Shown: piece after piece, positions 5,728 to 22,692 of the stretch
How the letters are laid out: every line of letters begins with the position of its first letter
Position numbering within the stretch: the stretch's first letter is position 1
NCBI GenBank assembly: GCA_964590575.1
Contig: CAZPWM010000046.1
Coordinates: 1 to 23,032 of the forward strand
Length of the DNA: 23,032 nt
Direction of reading: 5' to 3'
Source: an uncultured archaeon
GTDB lineage: Archaea > Asgardarchaeota > Thorarchaeia > Thorarchaeales > Thorarchaeaceae
Translations under genes and position numbers: made by a program
Notes under the pieces: generated by a model
The model's input: the letters and a program-made list of their open reading frames with translations, nothing else
Told to the model about the DNA's origin: nothing
Databases searched by the model: none

Positions 5728-6459
5728 TTGTCGGAAGAGAAACCATCTACAATCAAGTTCATTGATCGCGAGATGCGAAAAATCGATATCAGCCTCAGTG
5801 GACTCGACATTTCTTTTCCTTTGAATGCAATTCCGGATTTGATTTATGAGGCAATTGTGAACATTCTTGAGGGTGCTCAAGATGCTGATGAAAAGACTCG
5901 TAGACTCTACGATTCCACCCTGATGAAACCAACAGTTTCGACTCAGAATGCTACAGGAATTTTCCCGATTAACTCCGCGAAGAAACTTGTCCGATTGACT
6001 CTCACTGATGAGGCTATTGAAGACATGATTCTTGAGCTTGAGGGTGCAGAGCTCTCACTTCAGGGTAGACCCTTCGATGAAACCATAGAGGAACGGATTG
6101 AACTATATCAAAAAATCATGCTTGATGATAAAAAGATAGACCGCTTCCGGCTGGGTGCTGTTGAAATGTATGGTGATGTTACTTATCAGAACATCCTTAG
6201 AGACCCTCGAGTTAGTTTGAATTTCTTCTGGAAACAAGATGCTGAGCCACAGAGCCAAAGTTATCAAGTGAATTGCATTGCAGAAATAGTTCCACCGGGA
6301 GACCCTTACTTCAGATACATGAGATTGATGAGGAGACTATTCAGTTCAAAGCTGCTTGACCTTCGCGGCACAGTCGATTACGTCTGCGCTTACAAATTTT
6401 GGTGCTGTGAGAGTAAGGAAAAATCGCTGACAGAGAAAGCAGGGTACTCCCCTCTCTAA
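5728..6459 (+). CDS. Pyridoxamine 5'-phosphate oxidase-like (FMN-binding split barrel) protein with a helical insertion
   Basis: KPTVST..., LGAVEMYGDVTYQNILRDPRVSLNF ('T--N---PRV-L' motif), SYQVNCIAEIV. TTG start preceded by GGAGG. Confidence 0.6.
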   Translation: MSEEKPSTIKFIDREMRKIDISLSGLDISFPLNAIPDLIYEAIVNILEGAQDADEKTRRLYDSTLMKPTVSTQNATGIFPINSAKKLVRLTLTDEAIEDMILELEGAELSLQGRPFDETIEERIELYQKIMLDDKKIDRFRLGAVEMYGDVTYQNILRDPRVSLNFFWKQDAEPQSQSYQVNCIAEIVPPGDPYFRYMRLMRRLFSSKLLDLRGTVDYVCAYKFWCCESKEKSLTEKAGYSPL

Positions 6460-9015
6460 TCAGTAGTTTGTCACTCTTAGTAGTTTCTCTGGCAGCTCAT
6501 CAATAGAAGCAATATCTAGGACCACGCCATGAGCTTTCTTCGCAAGACTATCTGCAGCATGAGGATTGTAGGATGATTTTGGAACAAGAATTATCATCTT
6601 GATACCAAGCGGTTTCATCCTTTCTACAAGTTGCTCACAAACAGTTTGATCACTGAGGTACATGTCAGTGGAGAAGACGAATATCTTCTCCTTAGCACGT
6701 GTGTCCTCAAAGCTCTCAAGAGCCAACTTGATGGACTCTGCACCTCCAGTTCCCCCACCAGCTCTTGCTTCAAGAAGGTCTGCAGCCACTTTGTCAACAG
6801 AAACGGTTTTCTCATCCATCCTTTTAACTACGTGAGTTTCATTATCAAATAGTACTACACCAAAGTCGTCGCGCTTTACGCCGTAGAGCCCTGCCATCAC
6901 GGATATCGCTAGCATCCCAAGTTTCTCTGCTGAGTTCATAGACCCACTCTTATCCAAAGCCCAATAGAAGGCACGATGACCTTGGTAGGTTTCAGTTACC
7001 AGGAAATCAGAGGTCTCTAATATCTTGAAGTTCGTCCGACCCTGTGACAAAAGAGCCTCTATTGTTTCTTCGAGATCGATGAGGTCCATGTCGTCCCCTA
7101 TTTTGAACGGTCTCACCGTAGTAGACTCTAAAATCCCTCCGAGCATACTACTGCCCATCGTCTGTTTAGCATATCTCATCCCTAAGTCTATCAAGAGTCG
7201 CCTGGCAATCTCTCTAAGTCTCTGCTTGAGCTCATCAGGTAGTTGATCTCGGTATGCATACCAGATTCGGACTATGTTTGTTGCGGGGCCACTTAAGAGA
7301 CCCCCAAACGCCATATCCGCACGGTCTTTATCGAACGGTTGAGTTCCAGCACCACTTCCAGGTCCAACACCTCTACTACCATATTGTCTACTCCCATAGC
7401 CTTGACTACTAGTCCCCAAAGCTGCATGAAGGTCTTCATGAGCGACAGCACCCAGAGCACTCTGGTTCCCTTTTTCTGCAGCCATATCTGCAAGTTGTCG
7501 GAGTTGTTGGTGAGATAAACCAGCCGCAGACATTAGGTTGTGAAGTCTATCAAAATCAGACACTCCAGCTTCAATCAACTTCTTGATCACCTCATAGGAA
7601 GGATTCAGAAGCTCGAGAATCTCCTCTTCAGACATACCTAAACGTTCTCCAGATTTCTGAATGGATTCTCTTGAGGGAACCTGCCCCATCCTCGATAATT
7701 GCTTCACAGTATTTCGAAGATGTGTTTTTGTAGGCGATGTCTCACATACTGCATCAGCAAGCTTCTGCATAGCTTTGGTCCACTCTTTTTTTGTATGACT
7801 ACTAGGTAGCTCGGCACCCATCCGCATTCCTTGAGCTACAGCTGACCTTAGGAAATCAGACGGAGATGACCGTGCATTCGCATCTTGAATAGTTGCCTCA
7901 GTCTCCTTCTCCAGCAGGTTGCCCCAATTTTGATTGTCCCGGGCAGTTTCAGAAAGTTGACGCATGTCGACGTTGTTATGGCCACCATTATCATACTGCT
8001 CATCATATGCTTTGAGAAGGTCATCCAGGATATCTTGACCAGTGTGTTTCTTGATCTTGTCTGCAAAGGCGGCAGCATCGCTCAGTGGATATTGATTAGG
8101 TGCATCTTGAATGAGCTTATCCAGATTATCGGGGATTCGTTTTAGTTCAGCCGCGTAGTCTGCAGCTTCATCAAGGTCAGTAAGATTGTCTTGAAGTGTT
8201 TTGTCTAAGGATTCCCTTGATGTTTCATCTAAGATCCCCATTTCCTCCATGTGTCGGAGTGCACGAGCCGCTGTTGTGGTGTCAAGCGTTGCTAGGTCTG
8301 AGAACTTTTGCTCAACATCACTGTCCCCGCGAAGAGATTTTCCTGCTATTTGTTCTGCAGCATTGGACAAATCACAGACAGAATCTAATACCTGGAGTGT
8401 TTGGGAATTTTGGATGTCCTTTGATGTAAGCACTCCCGCTTTGTCTAGCAATTGGCTACCTGCTATCTCCCTAAGTTCGTCATCACTTGTAATCCCACGA
8501 AGTACTATATCACCATCAGTTAGATAGTCAGTAGCTGCTTCGTAGAGCTGCTGGTCGCCACTTCTGTGAAGCTCCTGGAGGTAGTCATAGCCCGCTTGAA
8601 CCTTCTCTTTCTTTATGACCTTAGCAAGTTCCTGCTCGCGACGAATCTGTTCCATCACTTTCTCCAGTGCGTCGCTCTGCTTTTTTGTTGCAGCTTGTGT
8701 TGCTGCTGCTTGCTCCGTATCGCTAAGCCGAGGTCGTTCAACTTTCTCCCTCCCGAGAAGTATGTCTTCAGCAATCTCCCTAGCAATGTCTTGATCTGGA
8801 GGAAATGTTGTGAAAACTGCTGCCTCAAGAAAGTCTTCCAACGTCAATTTGCCATTTCTGAAGAACCTTGCTGACAGGAGTTGAGGAATAGATTGTGTCT
8901 GGCGAATGCTGGGTTTCTTTGTAATGTCCTTTCTAGAACGCATACGTTTTGTGAATTCGTGTGCAAAATGGGGTGCATTGCTTGGTACAGGAGTAATCTT
9001 AGGCTCAGCAGCCAT
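6460..9015 (-). CDS. Large vWA-domain protein (CoxE/ViaA-like partner of MoxR) with an N-terminal AAA+ lid-like segment and a long helical middle
   Basis: C-terminal vWA with intact MIDAS (LDKSGSM, GGGT, FSTD) preceded by 'RPF--GDD---IDLEETI'. Starts 1 nt after the ATPase stop codon. Confidence 0.9.
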   Translation of the reverse strand: MAAEPKITPVPSNAPHFAHEFTKRMRSRKDITKKPSIRQTQSIPQLLSARFFRNGKLTLEDFLEAAVFTTFPPDQDIAREIAEDILLGREKVERPRLSDTEQAAATQAATKKQSDALEKVMEQIRREQELAKVIKKEKVQAGYDYLQELHRSGDQQLYEAATDYLTDGDIVLRGITSDDELREIAGSQLLDKAGVLTSKDIQNSQTLQVLDSVCDLSNAAEQIAGKSLRGDSDVEQKFSDLATLDTTTAARALRHMEEMGILDETSRESLDKTLQDNLTDLDEAADYAAELKRIPDNLDKLIQDAPNQYPLSDAAAFADKIKKHTGQDILDDLLKAYDEQYDNGGHNNVDMRQLSETARDNQNWGNLLEKETEATIQDANARSSPSDFLRSAVAQGMRMGAELPSSHTKKEWTKAMQKLADAVCETSPTKTHLRNTVKQLSRMGQVPSRESIQKSGERLGMSEEEILELLNPSYEVIKKLIEAGVSDFDRLHNLMSAAGLSHQQLRQLADMAAEKGNQSALGAVAHEDLHAALGTSSQGYGSRQYGSRGVGPGSGAGTQPFDKDRADMAFGGLLSGPATNIVRIWYAYRDQLPDELKQRLREIARRLLIDLGMRYAKQTMGSSMLGGILESTTVRPFKIGDDMDLIDLEETIEALLSQGRTNFKILETSDFLVTETYQGHRAFYWALDKSGSMNSAEKLGMLAISVMAGLYGVKRDDFGVVLFDNETHVVKRMDEKTVSVDKVAADLLEARAGGGTGGAESIKLALESFEDTRAKEKIFVFSTDMYLSDQTVCEQLVERMKPLGIKMIILVPKSSYNPHAADSLAKKAHGVVLDIASIDELPEKLLRVTNY

Positions 9016-9016
9016 A

Positions 9017-9925
9017 TCAGGTAGCTCCTAGATTCCTCCTCACAAGTGAGTTGACCGCTGGCTCAGGATCGATCCCTGGCCTGAATCGTAATGCTCCTAC
9101 TAGCACATATGTTGCTGCTTTGGATAATGTCGAGTGGGAGATGGTCTTCTCCTTCATTCTCTTGGTCATCTCTGCAGCAAGTCTTGAGATTGAAATCCCT
9201 GCCCTGATACTGGCTGGAATCTCGATGTCTGTGCTTACTCTGGTCGATGAAACCAGACCATAGACCTTTTCGAGAACAGCATCAGTGAGCTTATACTCAG
9301 GGCAGTTCATCTTCACAATCTCAATTTCAGTTTCCTTTCGAGGATATCCAAGACGAATCCAAACTCGCACACGGTCTCTAAGTGCTTCGCTTAGTCTATG
9401 CGCTCCACTCATTTCTTCGGGATTCATCGTCAGCACTGGGAAGAATCCTTCATGTGCTCGTATCCTCCCGAGTCTCTGAACATTAATGGACCGTTCCTCA
9501 AATGGGTCCAACAAGGAGTTCTGCACATATTCACTGAGACGGTTCCCTTCGTTTAGACCAAAGACTCCGCCAAAAACCATCGATTTCAAGAGAGGTCCGG
9601 GCTCGAAGGCTTCTAGTGAAAAGCCCTTGTTCAACACAATACTTGGGTTAAACGCACCCACGAGGTGGGAAGGTCTCACGCCTTCATCCCCGGTGATCCA
9701 GAACAGCTCCCTTTTGCTTTTCTCAGCATAAGCACGCAAAAGAAGTGTCTTTCCAACCCCAGGAGGTCCGATTATACCTGGTATCAGGTTTGCGTTCTCA
9801 CAATCAGTGAGTACACCAAAAGCATCTGCGTATTGTTCCTTGATGACGATTCGGACCTCTTCAGAAACAGCGGCCCGGAGTCGGTCGTCGAAAGCCTCTT
9901 TGAAAAGTTTCATCTCGTTCTGCAA
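9017..9925 (-). CDS. MoxR-family AAA+ ATPase
   Basis: Walker A GPPGVGKT, LVG, F-PGPL, Walker B variant VFGLNEGNR, VQNSLL--EER, sensor-1 TMNP, LSEALRDR (Arg finger), L-YP, lid with SIR. The start may be ATG 9913. Confidence 0.92.
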   Translation of the reverse strand: MQNEMKLFKEAFDDRLRAAVSEEVRIVIKEQYADAFGVLTDCENANLIPGIIGPPGVGKTLLLRAYAEKSKRELFWITGDEGVRPSHLVGAFNPSIVLNKGFSLEAFEPGPLLKSMVFGGVFGLNEGNRLSEYVQNSLLDPFEERSINVQRLGRIRAHEGFFPVLTMNPEEMSGAHRLSEALRDRVRVWIRLGYPRKETEIEIVKMNCPEYKLTDAVLEKVYGLVSSTRVSTDIEIPASIRAGISISRLAAEMTKRMKEKTISHSTLSKAATYVLVGALRFRPGIDPEPAVNSLVRRNLGAT

Positions 9926-14982: not shown

Positions 14983-15180
14983 CTAAGGAAAGAGACCAAA
15001 GAAGAGGAACCCAGGTATCATCATTGCAAGTATGAACAATGTGGCAAATAACAGAATCACAGCAAGAAGAATCCACATCCAGCATTCGCAGCATCGGGAG
15101 CAACAACCTTTCTCCTGCGGTGGTGGTTGCGGTTGGGTACCATAGTCTCCGGGCATTGGAATCTCAGTCATGTCAATCAC
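14983..15180 (-). CDS. Small membrane protein: Pro/Gln-rich N-terminus, CCxxCCxC cluster, hydrophobic C-terminus
   Basis: MTEIPMPGDYGTQPQPPPQEKGCCSRCCECWMWILLAVILLFATLFILAMMIPGFLFFGLFP. It fills an otherwise empty gap and is co-oriented with the downstream genes. Probable start ATG 15171. Confidence 0.7.
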   Translation of the reverse strand: MIDMTEIPMPGDYGTQPQPPPQEKGCCSRCCECWMWILLAVILLFATLFILAMMIPGFLFFGLFP

Positions 15181-15328: not shown

Positions 15329-16816
15329 TTGTCCAGGGAGAATAAGGTCTACACCATCTTAGACAGGCCATGGGGACTCCGAATGATTGGCGTCACTCAG
15401 ATGACGTTCGGAATATTTGGGCTATTTGCTTCAATTGGGATATTCATCGCTACGGTCATAGGAACATTGGATTCAATAGGATACATATTTGCATTGTTAC
15501 TTTTCGGAGGAGTAGCATTTCCATGTTTAGCGATTGGCAATAGTGTCGACGACCTCAGAAGATGGGCAGTGATTGCACAGATTTTGTATAGTCTTATAGC
15601 TGTGGGGCTTTGTATCTTTTTCCTCTATGTCCAAGGGATTTCCTATTATTGGAGTTTTCCAATATTTGGATTCCCGGATTTTGGGATAGCCATTGGAAAT
15701 ATTGCGGCATTTATTGTAGTATCACAGACTCTAATCATACTCTATCTTCTTGTCAGGTGGAACAATGTCGTACCTCCTCCAGGAGTCGCTGTAGAGAGGG
15801 ACAAAGCAAGAGCTAGATTGCTAGAAGCAGGGCTTATGCCAACACCCCTGGAACCCTCTCTATTGGCACCTGATGGCACAACCGCTCTCTCTCCAGAGGA
15901 TCAACAAAAAATCCTGGATGTCACAAAGGTCGTAACTGAGGAGGGTATGGCAATCCTCTGTTCAAACTGTAATGGAGCAACTCCACTTACCAAGGTCGAG
16001 GATAACAATACTATCCATTGCATGTATTGTGGAGTTGCCTTAGGTGTGAGTAGTGTGTTTGTACCTTGTCAGAACCATCAAGATGTACTAGCGGCTACAA
16101 CATGCAATGTCTGTGGAAACCACTTCTGCAGACAATGTCTGACGGTTCAAGAACCTCCAGTCGATGAGAGGTGGCAAGGGTCAGCAGTGTATCTTTGTAA
16201 GAAATGCTTCGAGGGAAGATATCGCCCGGCTGTCACAACCGCCGCATTAGTCATTCCAATTGATCAGCTCTTCTCAACGGCAGGTGGAAGAATCTCCAAA
16301 GTTGGGGGTATGTATAGAAGTTTTCTAGGTGCGTACGCTAGTGGGATGAAGCACCTTTGGAGGTTGCCCCTGGAACTTCTCGCCAGTCTTGGCAAGTCGG
16401 GAGGTAGTGGTGGTGGCGATAACTGTGCAGGAGCTTTGATTATGATTGTCATAATCATAATTGCAATTCCTATCTTAGCAGGTATTCTCATGTTACTAAG
16501 TGCTATCATCGTTATTCCAATCCTCTTCTACGCTGGTTTGATTGCAGTCACGGTTGAAGCTGCAAAAATCATCAGTGGAACTGATTTCATATCAGTGGAT
16601 AACGCCCGTGTCATGAGTATCCACGCTAACCGCAAACCCAAGGTTGTAGAGTCCAGACTACGACCCTCAGCACGTGTTTGGGAAGATGAATTTAGAAAGG
16701 CTTCAATTGATCATCAGAGAATAAAACAAAGACATGAAGAAGAACTAAGACAACGCGAAAGAAGAAGACAGGAGCAAAAGAGAACTGATTCATTCTGGAG
16801 GACACAATATGACTGA
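15329..16816 (+). CDS. Multi-pass membrane protein with an internal Zn-ribbon + B-box-like Zn finger and a charged coiled-coil tail
   Basis: Four N-terminal TM segments; CSNC-x16-CMYC; CQNH-x8-CNVC-x4-CRQC...CKKC; Gly linker; long hydrophobic hairpin; C-terminal RIKQRHEEELRQRERRRQEQKR. Confidence 0.85.
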   Translation: MSRENKVYTILDRPWGLRMIGVTQMTFGIFGLFASIGIFIATVIGTLDSIGYIFALLLFGGVAFPCLAIGNSVDDLRRWAVIAQILYSLIAVGLCIFFLYVQGISYYWSFPIFGFPDFGIAIGNIAAFIVVSQTLIILYLLVRWNNVVPPPGVAVERDKARARLLEAGLMPTPLEPSLLAPDGTTALSPEDQQKILDVTKVVTEEGMAILCSNCNGATPLTKVEDNNTIHCMYCGVALGVSSVFVPCQNHQDVLAATTCNVCGNHFCRQCLTVQEPPVDERWQGSAVYLCKKCFEGRYRPAVTTAALVIPIDQLFSTAGGRISKVGGMYRSFLGAYASGMKHLWRLPLELLASLGKSGGSGGGDNCAGALIMIVIIIIAIPILAGILMLLSAIIVIPILFYAGLIAVTVEAAKIISGTDFISVDNARVMSIHANRKPKVVESRLRPSARVWEDEFRKASIDHQRIKQRHEEELRQRERRRQEQKRTDSFWRTQYD

Positions 16817-17678
16817 AGCAATACAAGAACGAATTATGTGTCCTGTTTGTGGTGGACCAGTCAAAGTTGATCAAATGGACAAGGTCAATCGATGCGAGTA
16901 CTGCGCAAGTCCTGTGCTTGGACCCAGTCAGAGCAGGGATTGCGTTAACCATCCGGGGGTTCTTGCAAAAGAGGTCTGTCATGTTTGTGGGGATCTTATA
17001 TGTGAGGACTGTATTCAGAAACGTGTCGGAGATTATGGTGGAAAACTCCTTACTATTGTCAACTGTGAAAAAACGACTTGTGTGTCCCAGAGTGATTGGG
17101 CGAAGCCCCTCAATGAGGAATATCAGAAACTAGCCAATATGGATTGGGCTGATAGAATAGATAATTTCATACTCCGTATTACCGGACTTGGAGCTATCAT
17201 CATGATGATCTTTGAGTTGATCTTCTTTATTGGGGTCATGTTCTATCAGTTCATTACTCCGTGGAGCATCCCGGACGTTTCAATCGGAGGCTTAGGACCG
17301 GTCATAATGATTCCAGTGACAATATTGCTTCTCAGCATTCTTGGCAACATATTGTCAGCGATATTGCTTCAGTCAGCTCTTCAAGTATACGTCCATGAAC
17401 GCCAACTAGGAGCAGGAATCACCCTGTTAGTGATTCTCATAATTGAAGTTTCATTTCTACTCTTCAGAGGACTATTCTTAGGATTGTTGACATTTCCAAA
17501 TCCGTTGTTCCTGCCCTTGATGCTAGGTGCATTTCTCTTCGGAACAATCTTTGTCTTTGTGGGTTCTCTAATGGCAATCTATACTGGAAACAAGAAGCGG
17601 ATTCAACTGAAGGAAGCCAGAGAGAAACTGCAACTCTCTGTTAAACAGGGATTAGAATCTCTTTCAAAGAACTCTTGA
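16809..17678 (+). CDS. Membrane protein with an N-terminal Zn-ribbon + B-box-like Zn finger and four C-terminal TM helices
   Basis: CPVC-x14-CEYC; CVNH-x8-CHVC-x4-CEDC...CEKTTC; four hydrophobic segments. 8-nt overlap (ATGACTGA) with the upstream gene. Confidence 0.85.
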   Translation: MTEAIQERIMCPVCGGPVKVDQMDKVNRCEYCASPVLGPSQSRDCVNHPGVLAKEVCHVCGDLICEDCIQKRVGDYGGKLLTIVNCEKTTCVSQSDWAKPLNEEYQKLANMDWADRIDNFILRITGLGAIIMMIFELIFFIGVMFYQFITPWSIPDVSIGGLGPVIMIPVTILLLSILGNILSAILLQSALQVYVHERQLGAGITLLVILIIEVSFLLFRGLFLGLLTFPNPLFLPLMLGAFLFGTIFVFVGSLMAIYTGNKKRIQLKEAREKLQLSVKQGLESLSKNS

Positions 17679-20370: not shown

Positions 20371-22692
20371 CTATTTCTTGAACTTCTTAATGTAGACTAT
20401 GTAAACGACTACGATAGCCCCAACACCAATAACAGCTGGAAGAGCCACTGCGCCTAAAATCCCAAGGATATCTGGACCGAGAGGAGTTACCTCTTCAATC
20501 AGAAGTGGATGTGTTTCCATTGGAGTAATCTGAACGTAGAGGAAACCGTCAATAGCCTGGTTCCGAGTTATATCTATTTGCAAGAACAGATAATCGGAAA
20601 TTGCACCAAATTGGAATGAATAGTCAGCGAGAGATCCAACAAGCTCGTCATTAAGGTCAGTCCAACTTGTTGAATGAGTTCTTCCATCATATTCACTATA
20701 GAGGATTCCACCCCTACCAACCACATCTGCGGTCATTACAGATACATTATACCATGTTCCAGGCGTCGTATTTAGCATCAAACCATGAAGCTCATTGGAA
20801 CTACCCGGAAAAGGCAGTGTGAAGTTGTATGCTGCTGCTCCAGCAGTAACATCCAGATTCTCAATGTTGACGAAATAGTCATTCAACCTGTTTGTCCATT
20901 GGATAGTTAGATTTACTGGGTAGTCATAATAGTGGTTAGTTGCACCTTGGGTATTGTTATCGACAAGATAGGCGCAGATTCCCACAAACGCATGACTGTC
21001 ATACCAATCATGACCAGCATAGTAGAAAGTAGCATTATCCCAGTACACTGGGTGTGGTACAATCTGAGATCCATCCCATCGGTTTGCAAGAAGCATTCCA
21101 GCGCTATACATTGAACGACCTGAGGCATCATAGATGGTGACATCAAGAGCTACAGTGACGTTATCCTCGTTGTTTAGGAAGATTGTCATATTATACATCT
21201 GGAAGATATCAGTATCAACAAAGAACCCTCCAACATCTACAATCGTTGTGGATGTGTCATCAACTATGGGGCCAATATTGAACTCCACCCACTCATTCAC
21301 ATAGCTCGGAATAACCATCTCAACCAAATACTCACCTGCTGGCAGGTAGTACTCGGGTGAACTCAGAAGATCATTACTAAAGACGATTGTTCTCTCATTG
21401 CGGAAACCATCCTCAAAGAGCCCTGTCAATCTGACGGTTAGATCTCCTCCAGGAGCTGTTGAGTTCATTCTGAGGATAGATGGTTCCTCGACATCAAGAG
21501 TGTACCCGCGAGTCACTGTTACACCAATGTAGTTTTCAAACTGGAATTCCTCATTCAAAGGAAGTGCTCCGTGACTATTCATTTGGTGATAGAGAGTGTA
21601 TTGTGTTCCATCACCGCCTATCACTGTCACGTAGTAAGGTCCTCCTCTAAAGAAGTACTCACCATTGGACGGAAAACCTGTACCCTCATCATATCGAACA
21701 CCACCATTGTATCCGTACTCAAAAGCACTGCTCGTGAAACCAATGCTATGCATCTGTGTGATTGGCAAGATTCCTTCAGGGTAGTTGAAAGAGTAAGCTA
21801 GGGAAGCCACATCATCTTGAGAGTCCACCTTGTAGGTATGAACAGTTGGAGCCATTTCTTGATATACCCAGCTGCCAGTGTCATCTCTCATAACAATCTC
21901 ACCAGTGGGAAGTTCACCAGTTACTATATTGCCTGGGGCAATCAGTTGCGGTGAAACTGCGACTGGTAAAATGTCAAACAATGCGAAAGTCCCTGACGAA
22001 GGAAATGCTTGTAACACCACGTAGTAAGTCCCTGAGATTGATGGCTTGAAAGGAAGGGTCCATATGTCACCATCAGCCCCACTATAGGATGTTATGAAAC
22101 GACCCTCAGGATCAAGTACTGTGACAGCCCATGTGACATCATCTTGATTACTAGCAACAGTCAGATGAACGAACTCTTCTCCACCAATACCTAGTGTACC
22201 AAAATACGTGTAACCAACATCAACAGGCACCGCTGTGTGCTGACCAAACGTAAGACCGAAGGTTCGTGTTTCCAAGGTCGTATTTACAACAAGGGCTCCT
22301 CCACCTGATGCTTCAAAGTCATAGAATTCAGGAAGACGTGTTGGGTTATCGAAAGGACCAGTTGGCCAATTATTGAAAGACATCCAATTATAGGGAACAT
22401 TTGTGTCTTCCAAGAAAGCCCCGCTAGATCGAGCCCATCCAGTATTATCAAACCTATAAGCGTAGTAGTCCAAATTATCATTCAGATGCATAGTGCTTCT
22501 AGACACCATGTCTAGCGGATCAGGTTCAACATACATGTAGGTATGATTGTTTGCTCCTGATGCATATGCTTGATTAAATGTTTCAATTTTGATATTAGTC
22601 TGAAGTGCGGATACTGGGGCAGCAAGCGCTCCGAAGAGAAAAATCATCGAAACTGCTAGCCCTAATACCATCTTCATATTGACGTGCTTCAT
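20371..22692 (-). CDS. Large secreted, C-terminally anchored beta-rich surface protein of unknown function
   Basis: Signal peptide (MVLGLAVSMIFLFGALAAPVSA), recurring beta-sandwich/PPC-like motifs (SGTYYVVLQ, GGPYYVTV, PAGEYLVEM, PGTWYNVSV), C-terminal TM followed by KKFKK. SD GAGGTGAGG. Confidence 0.85.
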   Translation of the reverse strand: MKHVNMKMVLGLAVSMIFLFGALAAPVSALQTNIKIETFNQAYASGANNHTYMYVEPDPLDMVSRSTMHLNDNLDYYAYRFDNTGWARSSGAFLEDTNVPYNWMSFNNWPTGPFDNPTRLPEFYDFEASGGGALVVNTTLETRTFGLTFGQHTAVPVDVGYTYFGTLGIGGEEFVHLTVASNQDDVTWAVTVLDPEGRFITSYSGADGDIWTLPFKPSISGTYYVVLQAFPSSGTFALFDILPVAVSPQLIAPGNIVTGELPTGEIVMRDDTGSWVYQEMAPTVHTYKVDSQDDVASLAYSFNYPEGILPITQMHSIGFTSSAFEYGYNGGVRYDEGTGFPSNGEYFFRGGPYYVTVIGGDGTQYTLYHQMNSHGALPLNEEFQFENYIGVTVTRGYTLDVEEPSILRMNSTAPGGDLTVRLTGLFEDGFRNERTIVFSNDLLSSPEYYLPAGEYLVEMVIPSYVNEWVEFNIGPIVDDTSTTIVDVGGFFVDTDIFQMYNMTIFLNNEDNVTVALDVTIYDASGRSMYSAGMLLANRWDGSQIVPHPVYWDNATFYYAGHDWYDSHAFVGICAYLVDNNTQGATNHYYDYPVNLTIQWTNRLNDYFVNIENLDVTAGAAAYNFTLPFPGSSNELHGLMLNTTPGTWYNVSVMTADVVGRGGILYSEYDGRTHSTSWTDLNDELVGSLADYSFQFGAISDYLFLQIDITRNQAIDGFLYVQITPMETHPLLIEEVTPLGPDILGILGAVALPAVIGVGAIVVVYIVYIKKFKK

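Follow-up and report, generated by a model that had tools for sequence, protein, structure and literature searches.

Do two overlapping membrane-protein genes of an uncultured Thorarchaeaceae archaeon encode partners of a single complex, and what could such a complex do? The genes, here called A and B, lie on the forward strand of contig CAZPWM010000046.1 (assembly GCA_964590575.1), in a stretch of 23,032 nucleotides that was analysed as a whole and is referred to as the window. A preliminary description of this DNA had noted that both proteins carry the same module of about 85 residues rich in cysteine. An obligate heteromeric membrane complex is now the probable reading of A and B: their paralogous B-box-like modules would heterodimerise, and a hairpin of A would pack onto the helix bundle of B. 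The 8-nt gene overlap reported earlier is confirmed by the coordinates of the open reading frames (ORFs; Table 1), and the overlap of the reading frames suggests that A and B are made together. The long TTG start of A is supported by the N-terminal 'TIFDRPxGLR', which is conserved in the alignment of 50 A-family sequences.

The shared module consists of a zinc ribbon followed by a cross-brace finger, with ligands spanning C211-C293 in A (15959-16207) and C11-C91 in B (16839-17081). The Cys/His strings described earlier are present in both translations. A BLASTP comparison of A 209-271 with B 9-69 gives 33% identity with an E value of 5e-9, and hhalign, comparing the two family alignments profile to profile, aligns 69 columns with a probability of 98.6% and an E value of 1e-15. 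At the sequence level, the two modules are homologous, with a likeness far beyond chance. Their spacing had been described as identical from the second CxxC onward; this holds through the sixth ligand of the finger (CxxC-x12-C-x2-H-x8-C-x2-C-x4-C-x2-C) but not for the last ligand pair, which follows as CxxC after x19 in A and as Cx4C after x17 in B. The spacer of the first ribbon differs too, being x16 in A and x14 in B. All 12 ligand positions of the A module are invariant among the 50 A-family sequences, those of the B module are invariant or at least 90% conserved among 45 B-family sequences, and a joint alignment of 22 modules retains 11 ligand positions and one Tyr without exception. Since 12 ligands are available, four in the ribbon and eight in the finger, three zinc sites are expected per module. 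In the genome to which the window belongs, A and B alone carry the full module, the five further profile matches being ribbon only. Common descent of the transmembrane (TM) parts was also considered and is not detectable, with hhalign probabilities of 0.1-0.2% for TM1-4 or TM5-6 of A against TM1-4 of B.

In the predicted A-B complex, the two modules are in contact. The interface score, ipSAE, is 0.63 (0.63, 0.55 and 0.63 in the individual runs), the highest of three controls scores 0.00, the predicted local distance difference test (pLDDT) value of the partner is at least 74, and at least 65% of the contacts are common to the runs. Of 157 solved complexes, 116 attain the ipSAE mark applied here, as do 2 of 215 mismatched pairs, a calibration that is only roughly valid for A and B because custom alignments were fed to the model. 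Two contact regions are predicted. In the first, the module of A (209-301) together with A 172-184 lies against B 7-84, which comprises the module and the 'YGGKLLT' hairpin; in the second, the latter half of the A hairpin (397-415) lies against B 118-137 and 173-197 in TM1 and TM2. Several residues of the B linker (92-121) are inside the interface, and N180 of B is predicted to face TM6 of A. The interface is enriched for positions conserved at 90% or more (58% versus 27% elsewhere in A, 51% versus 25% in B), and the enrichment persists when the conserved Cys and His are removed; this conservation is supportive only, as it shares its alignments with the model. The association expected from the preliminary description is therefore predicted, through the zinc modules and with clean controls.

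The association of the two genes is conserved across the lineage. The survey covered 200 further genomes of the phylum, not counting that of the window, with f1 denoting the window's family and f2 the one other family of its order among those searched. B is present in 39 of 43 f1 genomes and in the single f2 genome, occurs weakly in 2 of 19 genomes of family f12, and is found in none of the other 24 families. The module profile returns the same counts for f1 and f2 (39/43 and 1/1), with exactly two matches in most of these genomes. The linkage that the preliminary description had looked for is seen in 39 of the 40 pair-bearing genomes, where a single contig carries the two modules on the same strand at a distance of 0.75-0.9 kb; in the fortieth, G149, B is 690 nt from a contig end. 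The start of B lies -8 to +6 nt from the stop of A in all 24 loci with both genes complete. The four f1 genomes with no match are 74%, 85%, 93% and 97% complete. Identity of B to the window copy is 53-84% in f1 and 41% in G016, and the most distant genomes, G108 and G016, stand at 38-41%. The pair is flanked in f1 by genes for adenine deaminase and a VIT1-family metal transporter but not in G108, the f2 genome, so that A-B alone is conserved across both families. Database homologues at E<=0.001 form 176 clusters (90% identity) for A, 53-91% identical among the 120 matches listed, and 171 for B, some of which are named 'B-box zinc finger protein' by NCBI. They bear Thorarchaeota-type Asgard names, with other Asgard labels on a few records.

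Three loci of the survey depart from this arrangement in detail. At L027 2890-4246 (-) in G152, A is broken into two ORFs of 171 and 310 residues by a frameshift or an assembly error, and in G069 the open frame across the A module is also short (340 residues). In G108, a gap of 84 nt separates B from a downstream gene on its strand for a 457-residue multi-pass membrane protein (L023 813-2186, -), which has no counterpart beside the window pair.

The architecture of the two proteins, previously described as four TM segments, the module, a TM hairpin and a charged coiled coil in A, and as the module and four TM segments in B, is borne out by hydropathy and by AlphaFold2 (AF2) models. The mean pLDDT is 82.9 for B and 73.4 for A, exceeding 85 in the N-terminal domain of A, and the modelled helices agree with hydropathy. 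Mean counts of Lys plus Arg in the family alignments are 0.0-0.5 for loops read as outside and 1.0-25.6 for segments read as inside, termini included, with 19.0 for the C-terminal tail of A. By hydropathy and the positive-inside rule, A and B are both N-in and C-in, which places both zinc modules in the cytoplasm and thus on one side of the membrane, the point on which the preliminary description had asked for a check.

Table 1 Features of the A-B gene pair (positions in the window).
Feature	Position	Strand	Details
Gene A	15329-16816	+	ORF, TTG start, 495 aa, 6-TM membrane protein
A N-terminal four-helix TM domain, residues 20-143	15386-15757	+	Short beta-hairpin in outer loop 3-4; conserved inner loop motif IGNYVDDLRR
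A Zn ribbon and B-box-like cross-brace finger, residues 209-295	15953-16213	+	Ribbon C211, C214, C231, C234; finger C247, H250, C259, C262, C267, C270, C290, C293
A hydrophobic stretch of ~52 aa, residues 362-416, read as tight TM hairpin TM5-TM6	16412-16576	+	Conserved P381, P397, F400, Y401, G403
A basic R/E/Q-rich cytoplasmic helix, residues 440-495	16646-16813	+	AF2 helix 450-494; conserved terminal SFW motif
A stop / B start overlap, 8 nt (translational coupling)	16809-16816	+	ORF coordinates
Gene B	16809-17678	+	ORF, ATG start, 289 aa, 4-TM membrane protein
B Zn ribbon and B-box-like finger, residues 9-91	16833-17081	+	Ribbon C11, C14, C29, C32; finger C45, H48, C57, C60, C65, C68, C86, C91
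B cytoplasmic linker, residues 92-121, strongly conserved (WAKPLNEEYQKLANMDWADRxDN)	17082-17171	+	W97, L108, W113, D118 (near-)invariant; AF2 helices 89-94, 103-108
B four-helix TM bundle, residues 122-257	17172-17579	+	Hydropathy; pLDDT ~85-97

Within the bundle of B, three polar residues are conserved near mid-membrane: E136 in TM1 is invariant, and N180 in TM2 and E213 in TM3 are near-invariant (45 sequences). Further conserved polar residues, Q188, Q192, H196, R198 and the invariant R220, are located at the inner ends of the helices. The mid-membrane residues and R220 could belong to a site for ions, a site for sensing or a contact between subunits. In A, residues 20-143 recall the tetraspanins (CD53 6wvg_B, CD9 6k4j_A, Tspan15 8esv_B) in having four TM segments with both termini inside. 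Tetraspanins possess a large second outer loop with a CCG motif and disulfides, unlike A, whose loop 102-121 has about 20 residues and no Cys. Stand-alone copies of the A N-terminal domain were limited to three short fragments of the same family. The Pfam LapA_dom profile weakly matches 9 of 45 B-family proteins, with a best E of 2.4e-4.

The finger itself falls between known types. The Pfam zf-B_box profile (PF00643) scores 20.0 bits on whole B (E 7.8e-4) and 22.6 bits on its module alone, and FYVE (PF01363) scores 16.8 bits on A and 11.5 bits on B, all below the gathering cut-offs of 24.1 bits and 27.8 bits, respectively; zf-B_box has no match on whole A at E<=1. A sub-threshold zf-B_box match recurs in 43 of 45 B proteins at E<=0.01 (best E 1.8e-5). 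At the same limit, the 50 whole A proteins yield sub-threshold matches to FYVE in 18 (best 9e-4), to IBR in 11 and to zf-B_box in 1. Among the 22 isolated modules, at E<=0.1, zf-B_box is matched by 20 (best 3.4e-6), an ANCHR-like B-box by 20 and FYVE by 14. When the module profile is compared with Protein Data Bank (PDB) sequences, its second half weakly finds the B-boxes of TRIM2 (8ams_C, E 4.8e-4) and MID1 (2ffw, E 0.0026), with further TRIM B-boxes at E 0.03-0.7, and its first half finds the ribbon of RNA polymerase subunit P (RpoP, E 6.5e-4). The PRDM9 rows topping this search were discounted as repeated C2H2 matches. Judged by these profiles, the module is an RpoP-like ribbon joined to a cross-brace finger of B-box type, in which the last ligand pair is set off by a long spacer as in FYVE. 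It is called B-box-like and not a B-box member because it stays below the curated thresholds, and the basic motif of FYVE is absent as well; the name used in the preliminary description is fair, given the recurrent zf-B_box, TRIM2 and MID1 matches.

The consensus of zf-B_box is C-x2-H-x7/8-C-x2-C-x4-C-x2-C followed a few residues on by His/His or Cys/His, and B-boxes self-associate. With the TRIM-type B-box (TRIM2 8ams_C, MID1 2ffw/2jun), the finger shares C-x2-H-x8-C-x2-C-x4-C-x2-C (C247-C270 of A, C45-C68 of B) and the signature 'C.NH....L....C..C', but it has no conserved His after the sixth ligand, and the H-x-H pair that closes a B-box near its sixth ligand gives way to a beta-hairpin insert of 17-19 residues followed by CxxC or Cx4C. 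Compared with TRIM/RBCC proteins, A and B lack the TRIM coiled coil and the RING (no RING family at E<=1 on either whole protein in Pfam), the zinc ribbon precedes the finger, TM helices follow it, and the proteins are embedded in the membrane. With FYVE and FYVE-like fingers (rabphilin-3A 1zbd, ZFYVE19 1wfk, ZFYVE27/protrudin 1x4u), weakly matched by the module in Pfam and PDB sequences, it shares the eight-ligand cross-brace and the long spacer before the last CxxC. Binding of phosphatidylinositol 3-phosphate by FYVE requires R(R/K)HHCR before the third ligand pair; at that site, the window proteins instead read LAATTCNVCG (A) and LAKEVCHVCG (B), and the family consensus reads LAATTCAVCG and LAKEVCHVCG. 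In protrudin, a FYVE-like finger likewise occurs in one protein with a hydrophobic hairpin and a coiled coil.

These observations make the following assembly probable. A and B would together build a single integral-membrane complex, each as one of its two subunits, and the complex would be particular to the Thorarchaeota lineage. Each subunit would insert with its N-terminus inside, leaving every soluble part, the zinc modules included, in the cytoplasm. Each module would hold three zinc ions, in the ribbon and in the B-box-type binuclear finger, and the modules of A and B would pair much like the B-box or RING fingers of eukaryotic proteins, with the conserved linkers ('LAPDG' of A, 'YGGKLLT' and the WAKPLN helix of B) adding contacts. 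The TM5-TM6 hairpin of A would dock onto TM1 and TM2 of B, giving a heteromeric assembly of ten helices. The N-terminal four-helix domain of A and its basic C-terminal helix would stay free for other partners. The zinc modules would thereby serve as an assembly platform, not as nucleic-acid binders or ligases.

Database searches place the pair outside characterised families, in agreement with its earlier description. Pfam and NCBIfam scans of whole A and B returned no catalytic or transporter family, only weak zinc-finger matches, in line with the earlier remark that no catalytic domain is visible; a Rhomboid domain was matched in neither protein at E<=1. PADLOC-DB 2.0 gave 0 families at E<=0.01 for A, B and a small Cys-rich peptide encoded nearby. 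No solved relative was found among PDB sequences with the whole A- and B-family profiles, and Foldseek found nothing at E<=0.001 for the A and B models. The best ESM Atlas scores, 0.83 for B and 0.86 for A 1-160, are below the lead level of 0.9, and a wide structural search with B retrieved generic helical or four-helix bundles only. In the literature, no description of this pair was found; Asgard orthologous-group supplements may list the families undescribed.

As to function, the nearest analogues are prokaryotic membrane-linked B-box proteins. Burroughs, Iyer and Aravind (2011, Mol Biosyst 7:2261) reportedly found prokaryotic B-boxes fused or operon-linked to membrane peptidases or chaperones. 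The Thorarchaeota lineage was, to our knowledge, not known in 2011. That such proteins organise or stabilise other membrane proteins is proposed in PMC4506424, which cites the 2011 study. A and B resemble them in combining a cytoplasmic B-box-type finger with TM segments in one polypeptide and in having no catalytic domain of their own. They differ in that two paralogous copies are carried by adjacent, translationally coupled polytopic proteins, in that a zinc ribbon precedes each finger and the last ligand pair (CxxC) is distant, and in that the neighbours are VIT1, a pyridoxal phosphate (PLP) enzyme and adenine deaminase instead of a peptidase or chaperone. By this analogy, the pair may tentatively be viewed as a membrane scaffold or adaptor without enzymatic activity, through which other membrane proteins are organised or stabilised, an assignment we hold with considerable doubt. 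The reading as a whole, a two-subunit complex of the Thorarchaeota lineage serving as a scaffold, stands at roughly even chances.

Several points weigh against it. The scaffold role has no contextual support, since the pair has no consistent neighbour that encodes a peptidase, a chaperone or a client; among the window neighbours and the loci of related genomes, no peptidase, chaperone, ubiquitin or ESCRT gene adjoins it. In G164, which is 93% complete, adenine deaminase is directly followed by genes for the small peptide and VIT1, and A-B is missing from the syntenic slot, indicating that the pair is dispensable in that lineage. The A 'hairpin' is drawn by AF2 as a single helix of 51 residues (366-416), and the pLDDT of the middle region of A is just 50-75. 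The score of the complex expresses the model's own confidence, obtained with alignments of vertically co-inherited genes, and the enrichment at the predicted interface is not independent of the general conservation of the zinc modules or of the input alignment. Finally, E136, N180 and E213 of B exceed the needs of a passive anchor and fit a transport or sensing site equally.

The main rival to the scaffold takes up this last point. A-B would be a cation (metal or proton) channel or transporter, in which the bundle of B, perhaps oligomeric, carries the E136/N180/E213 site and the zinc modules gate or assemble it. The acidic and amide residues of TM1, TM2 and TM3 are invariant or near-invariant, the TM segments are conserved as strongly as the soluble parts, and the pair adjoins the VIT1-family gene in f1. 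This adjacency, however, is inherited synteny and is absent in G108; no transporter family or fold is matched, the weak structural rows being generic four-helix bundles; and N180, as it is predicted to face TM6 of A, may be an interface residue and not a pore residue. We regard this rival as unlikely, though it deserves to be kept in view.

Alternatively, the pair might be a membrane-tethered sensor or regulator of an envelope, redox or zinc signal, akin to bacterial envelope-stress modules, with the zinc modules or the basic C-terminal helix of A holding or releasing a partner in the cytoplasm. The long charged helix of A, with its conserved terminal SFW, is free in the complex model, and Cys-rich zinc sites can serve as redox or metal switches. 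A 2024 survey lists B-box among the domains accompanying envelope-stress (PSP/Lia-type) proteins in bacteria (PMC11237479), and this was the sole B-box mention met in a paper that also mentions Asgard archaea. Yet the outer loops are short (3-20 residues) and leave little to sense with extracellularly, and the families do not have a transcription factor or partner gene in common next to the pair, which makes a signalling role rather improbable.

The heteromeric complex must also be weighed against two tandem paralogues that act independently, their adjacency reflecting duplication and shared regulation and their interface being an artefact. A common module implies common descent, structure models can co-place related domains, and small relatives of the module also occur singly, as in G126. 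Nothing is shared beyond the module, however (hhalign probability 0.2% for the TM parts), gene order, adjacency and coupling are kept down to 38-41% identity of B in G108 and G016, all three controls scored 0.00, and the conserved residues other than ligands are concentrated in the interface. Independent action is accordingly a minor contender, a shade behind the sensor.

Quality control, ubiquitin-like signalling and defence, the roles first suggested for the pair, find no direct support, with no such neighbour genes and no PADLOC match. A membrane ubiquitin-like ligase or adaptor with a RING-like finger, tied to the Asgard ubiquitin/ESCRT machinery, would suit the host and the weak ANCHR-like B-box matches (20 of 22 modules at E<=0.1), but neither the window nor the surroundings of the pair in other genomes contain a gene for RING, E1, E2, ubiquitin or ESCRT (genome-wide ubiquitin and ESCRT genes were not profiled), the full module is confined to A and B within the window's genome, and the pair is confined to one order; this role is very improbable. 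An anti-virus defence or toxin-antitoxin-like module, suggested by two overlapping genes forming a cassette and by their absence from the syntenic slot of G164, is the least credible of all, as the pair, unlike a defence island, is single-copy with conserved housekeeping synteny in 39 of 43 related genomes, and it has no PADLOC match and no mobile-element genes nearby.

The module extends beyond A and B. A profile search retrieved 645 representative proteins at E<=0.001, 95 of them at E<=1e-10, and by a crude hydropathy scan the top 92 are mostly proteins of 150-350 residues with the module N-terminal and two TM segments about 30 residues on. These small metagenome proteins share with the core of A a complete module followed by a hairpin, but they are without the four-helix domain and basic tail of A and the four-helix bundle of B. 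Because of this common layout, A looks like such an ancestral unit to which an N-terminal four-helix domain and a basic tail have been added; B looks like a module mounted on a four-helix bundle. The pair thus defines a wider uncharacterised family of 'ribbon + B-box-like + TM hairpin' proteins (~90 clusters). Tandem arrays of four or five small module proteins flank an ABC ATPase and an ABC-2 permease at L024 1765-4635 and L025 868-6333 in two related genomes (G152, G112), as would be expected if hetero-oligomerisation were habitual in the family.

No closer relatives of eukaryotes than the Asgard archaea are known, and in eukaryotes much of membrane and ubiquitin biology revolves around B-box and RING-like fingers. 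In this setting, a strongly conserved, lineage-wide polytopic pair apparently clamped into a heterodimer by paralogous B-box-type fingers is an arrangement we did not find described in the literature, and A-B offers a compact two-protein system for probing membrane-anchored B-box fingers in prokaryotes. A bolder extension, to which we give little chance, is an Asgard-specific membrane-organising machine, in which a tetraspanin-like domain, a wedge-like hairpin and a charged arm of A are clamped to B by the finger heterodimer. If true, its role in Thorarchaeota would be to form or shape membrane domains, and it would represent an archaeal counterpart or forerunner of eukaryotic membrane scaffolds in which hairpins, coiled coils and B-box/FYVE fingers are united (TRIM13/59, ZFPL1, protrudin) or of tetraspanin webs.

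Upstream of the pair, the window encodes the small Cys-rich peptide at 14983-15180 (-), which had been raised as a possible third partner. It belongs to a group of single-pass membrane peptides of 55-75 residues (also at L036 3334-4298) that begin with the conserved MSEIPMPGDYG and have clustered Cys residues next to the membrane segment, reading GCCSRCCEC in the window copy. Of 46 genomes of the family, 22 have the peptide; its gene immediately precedes that of the VIT1-family transporter on the same strand, and G164 has four tandem copies. Across 30 genomes bearing A-B, it is present at E<1e-8 in 13, weakly in G149, and in none of the remaining 16. A third subunit of A-B is thereby ruled out, since the peptide is absent from 16 of 30 pair genomes and persists in G164 where the pair is missing. 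It travels with VIT1 and may be a metal-related partner of that transporter, not of A-B.

The neighbours of the pair in the window comprise amidohydrolases, an ABC-2 transporter, the PLP enzyme, the VIT1-family transporter, adenine deaminase and a methyltransferase; no mobile-element gene is seen among them, and no tRNA was found across the window. Two ORFs, one of 773 residues at 20371-22692 (-) and one of 243 residues at 5728-6459 (+), are matched by nothing in Pfam or PADLOC at the thresholds applied. On the minus strand at 6460-9925, the gene of an AAA_5 (MoxR/dynein-type) ATPase (9017-9925) precedes an 851-residue ORF with no match in Pfam or PADLOC, and the two may constitute a two-gene system.

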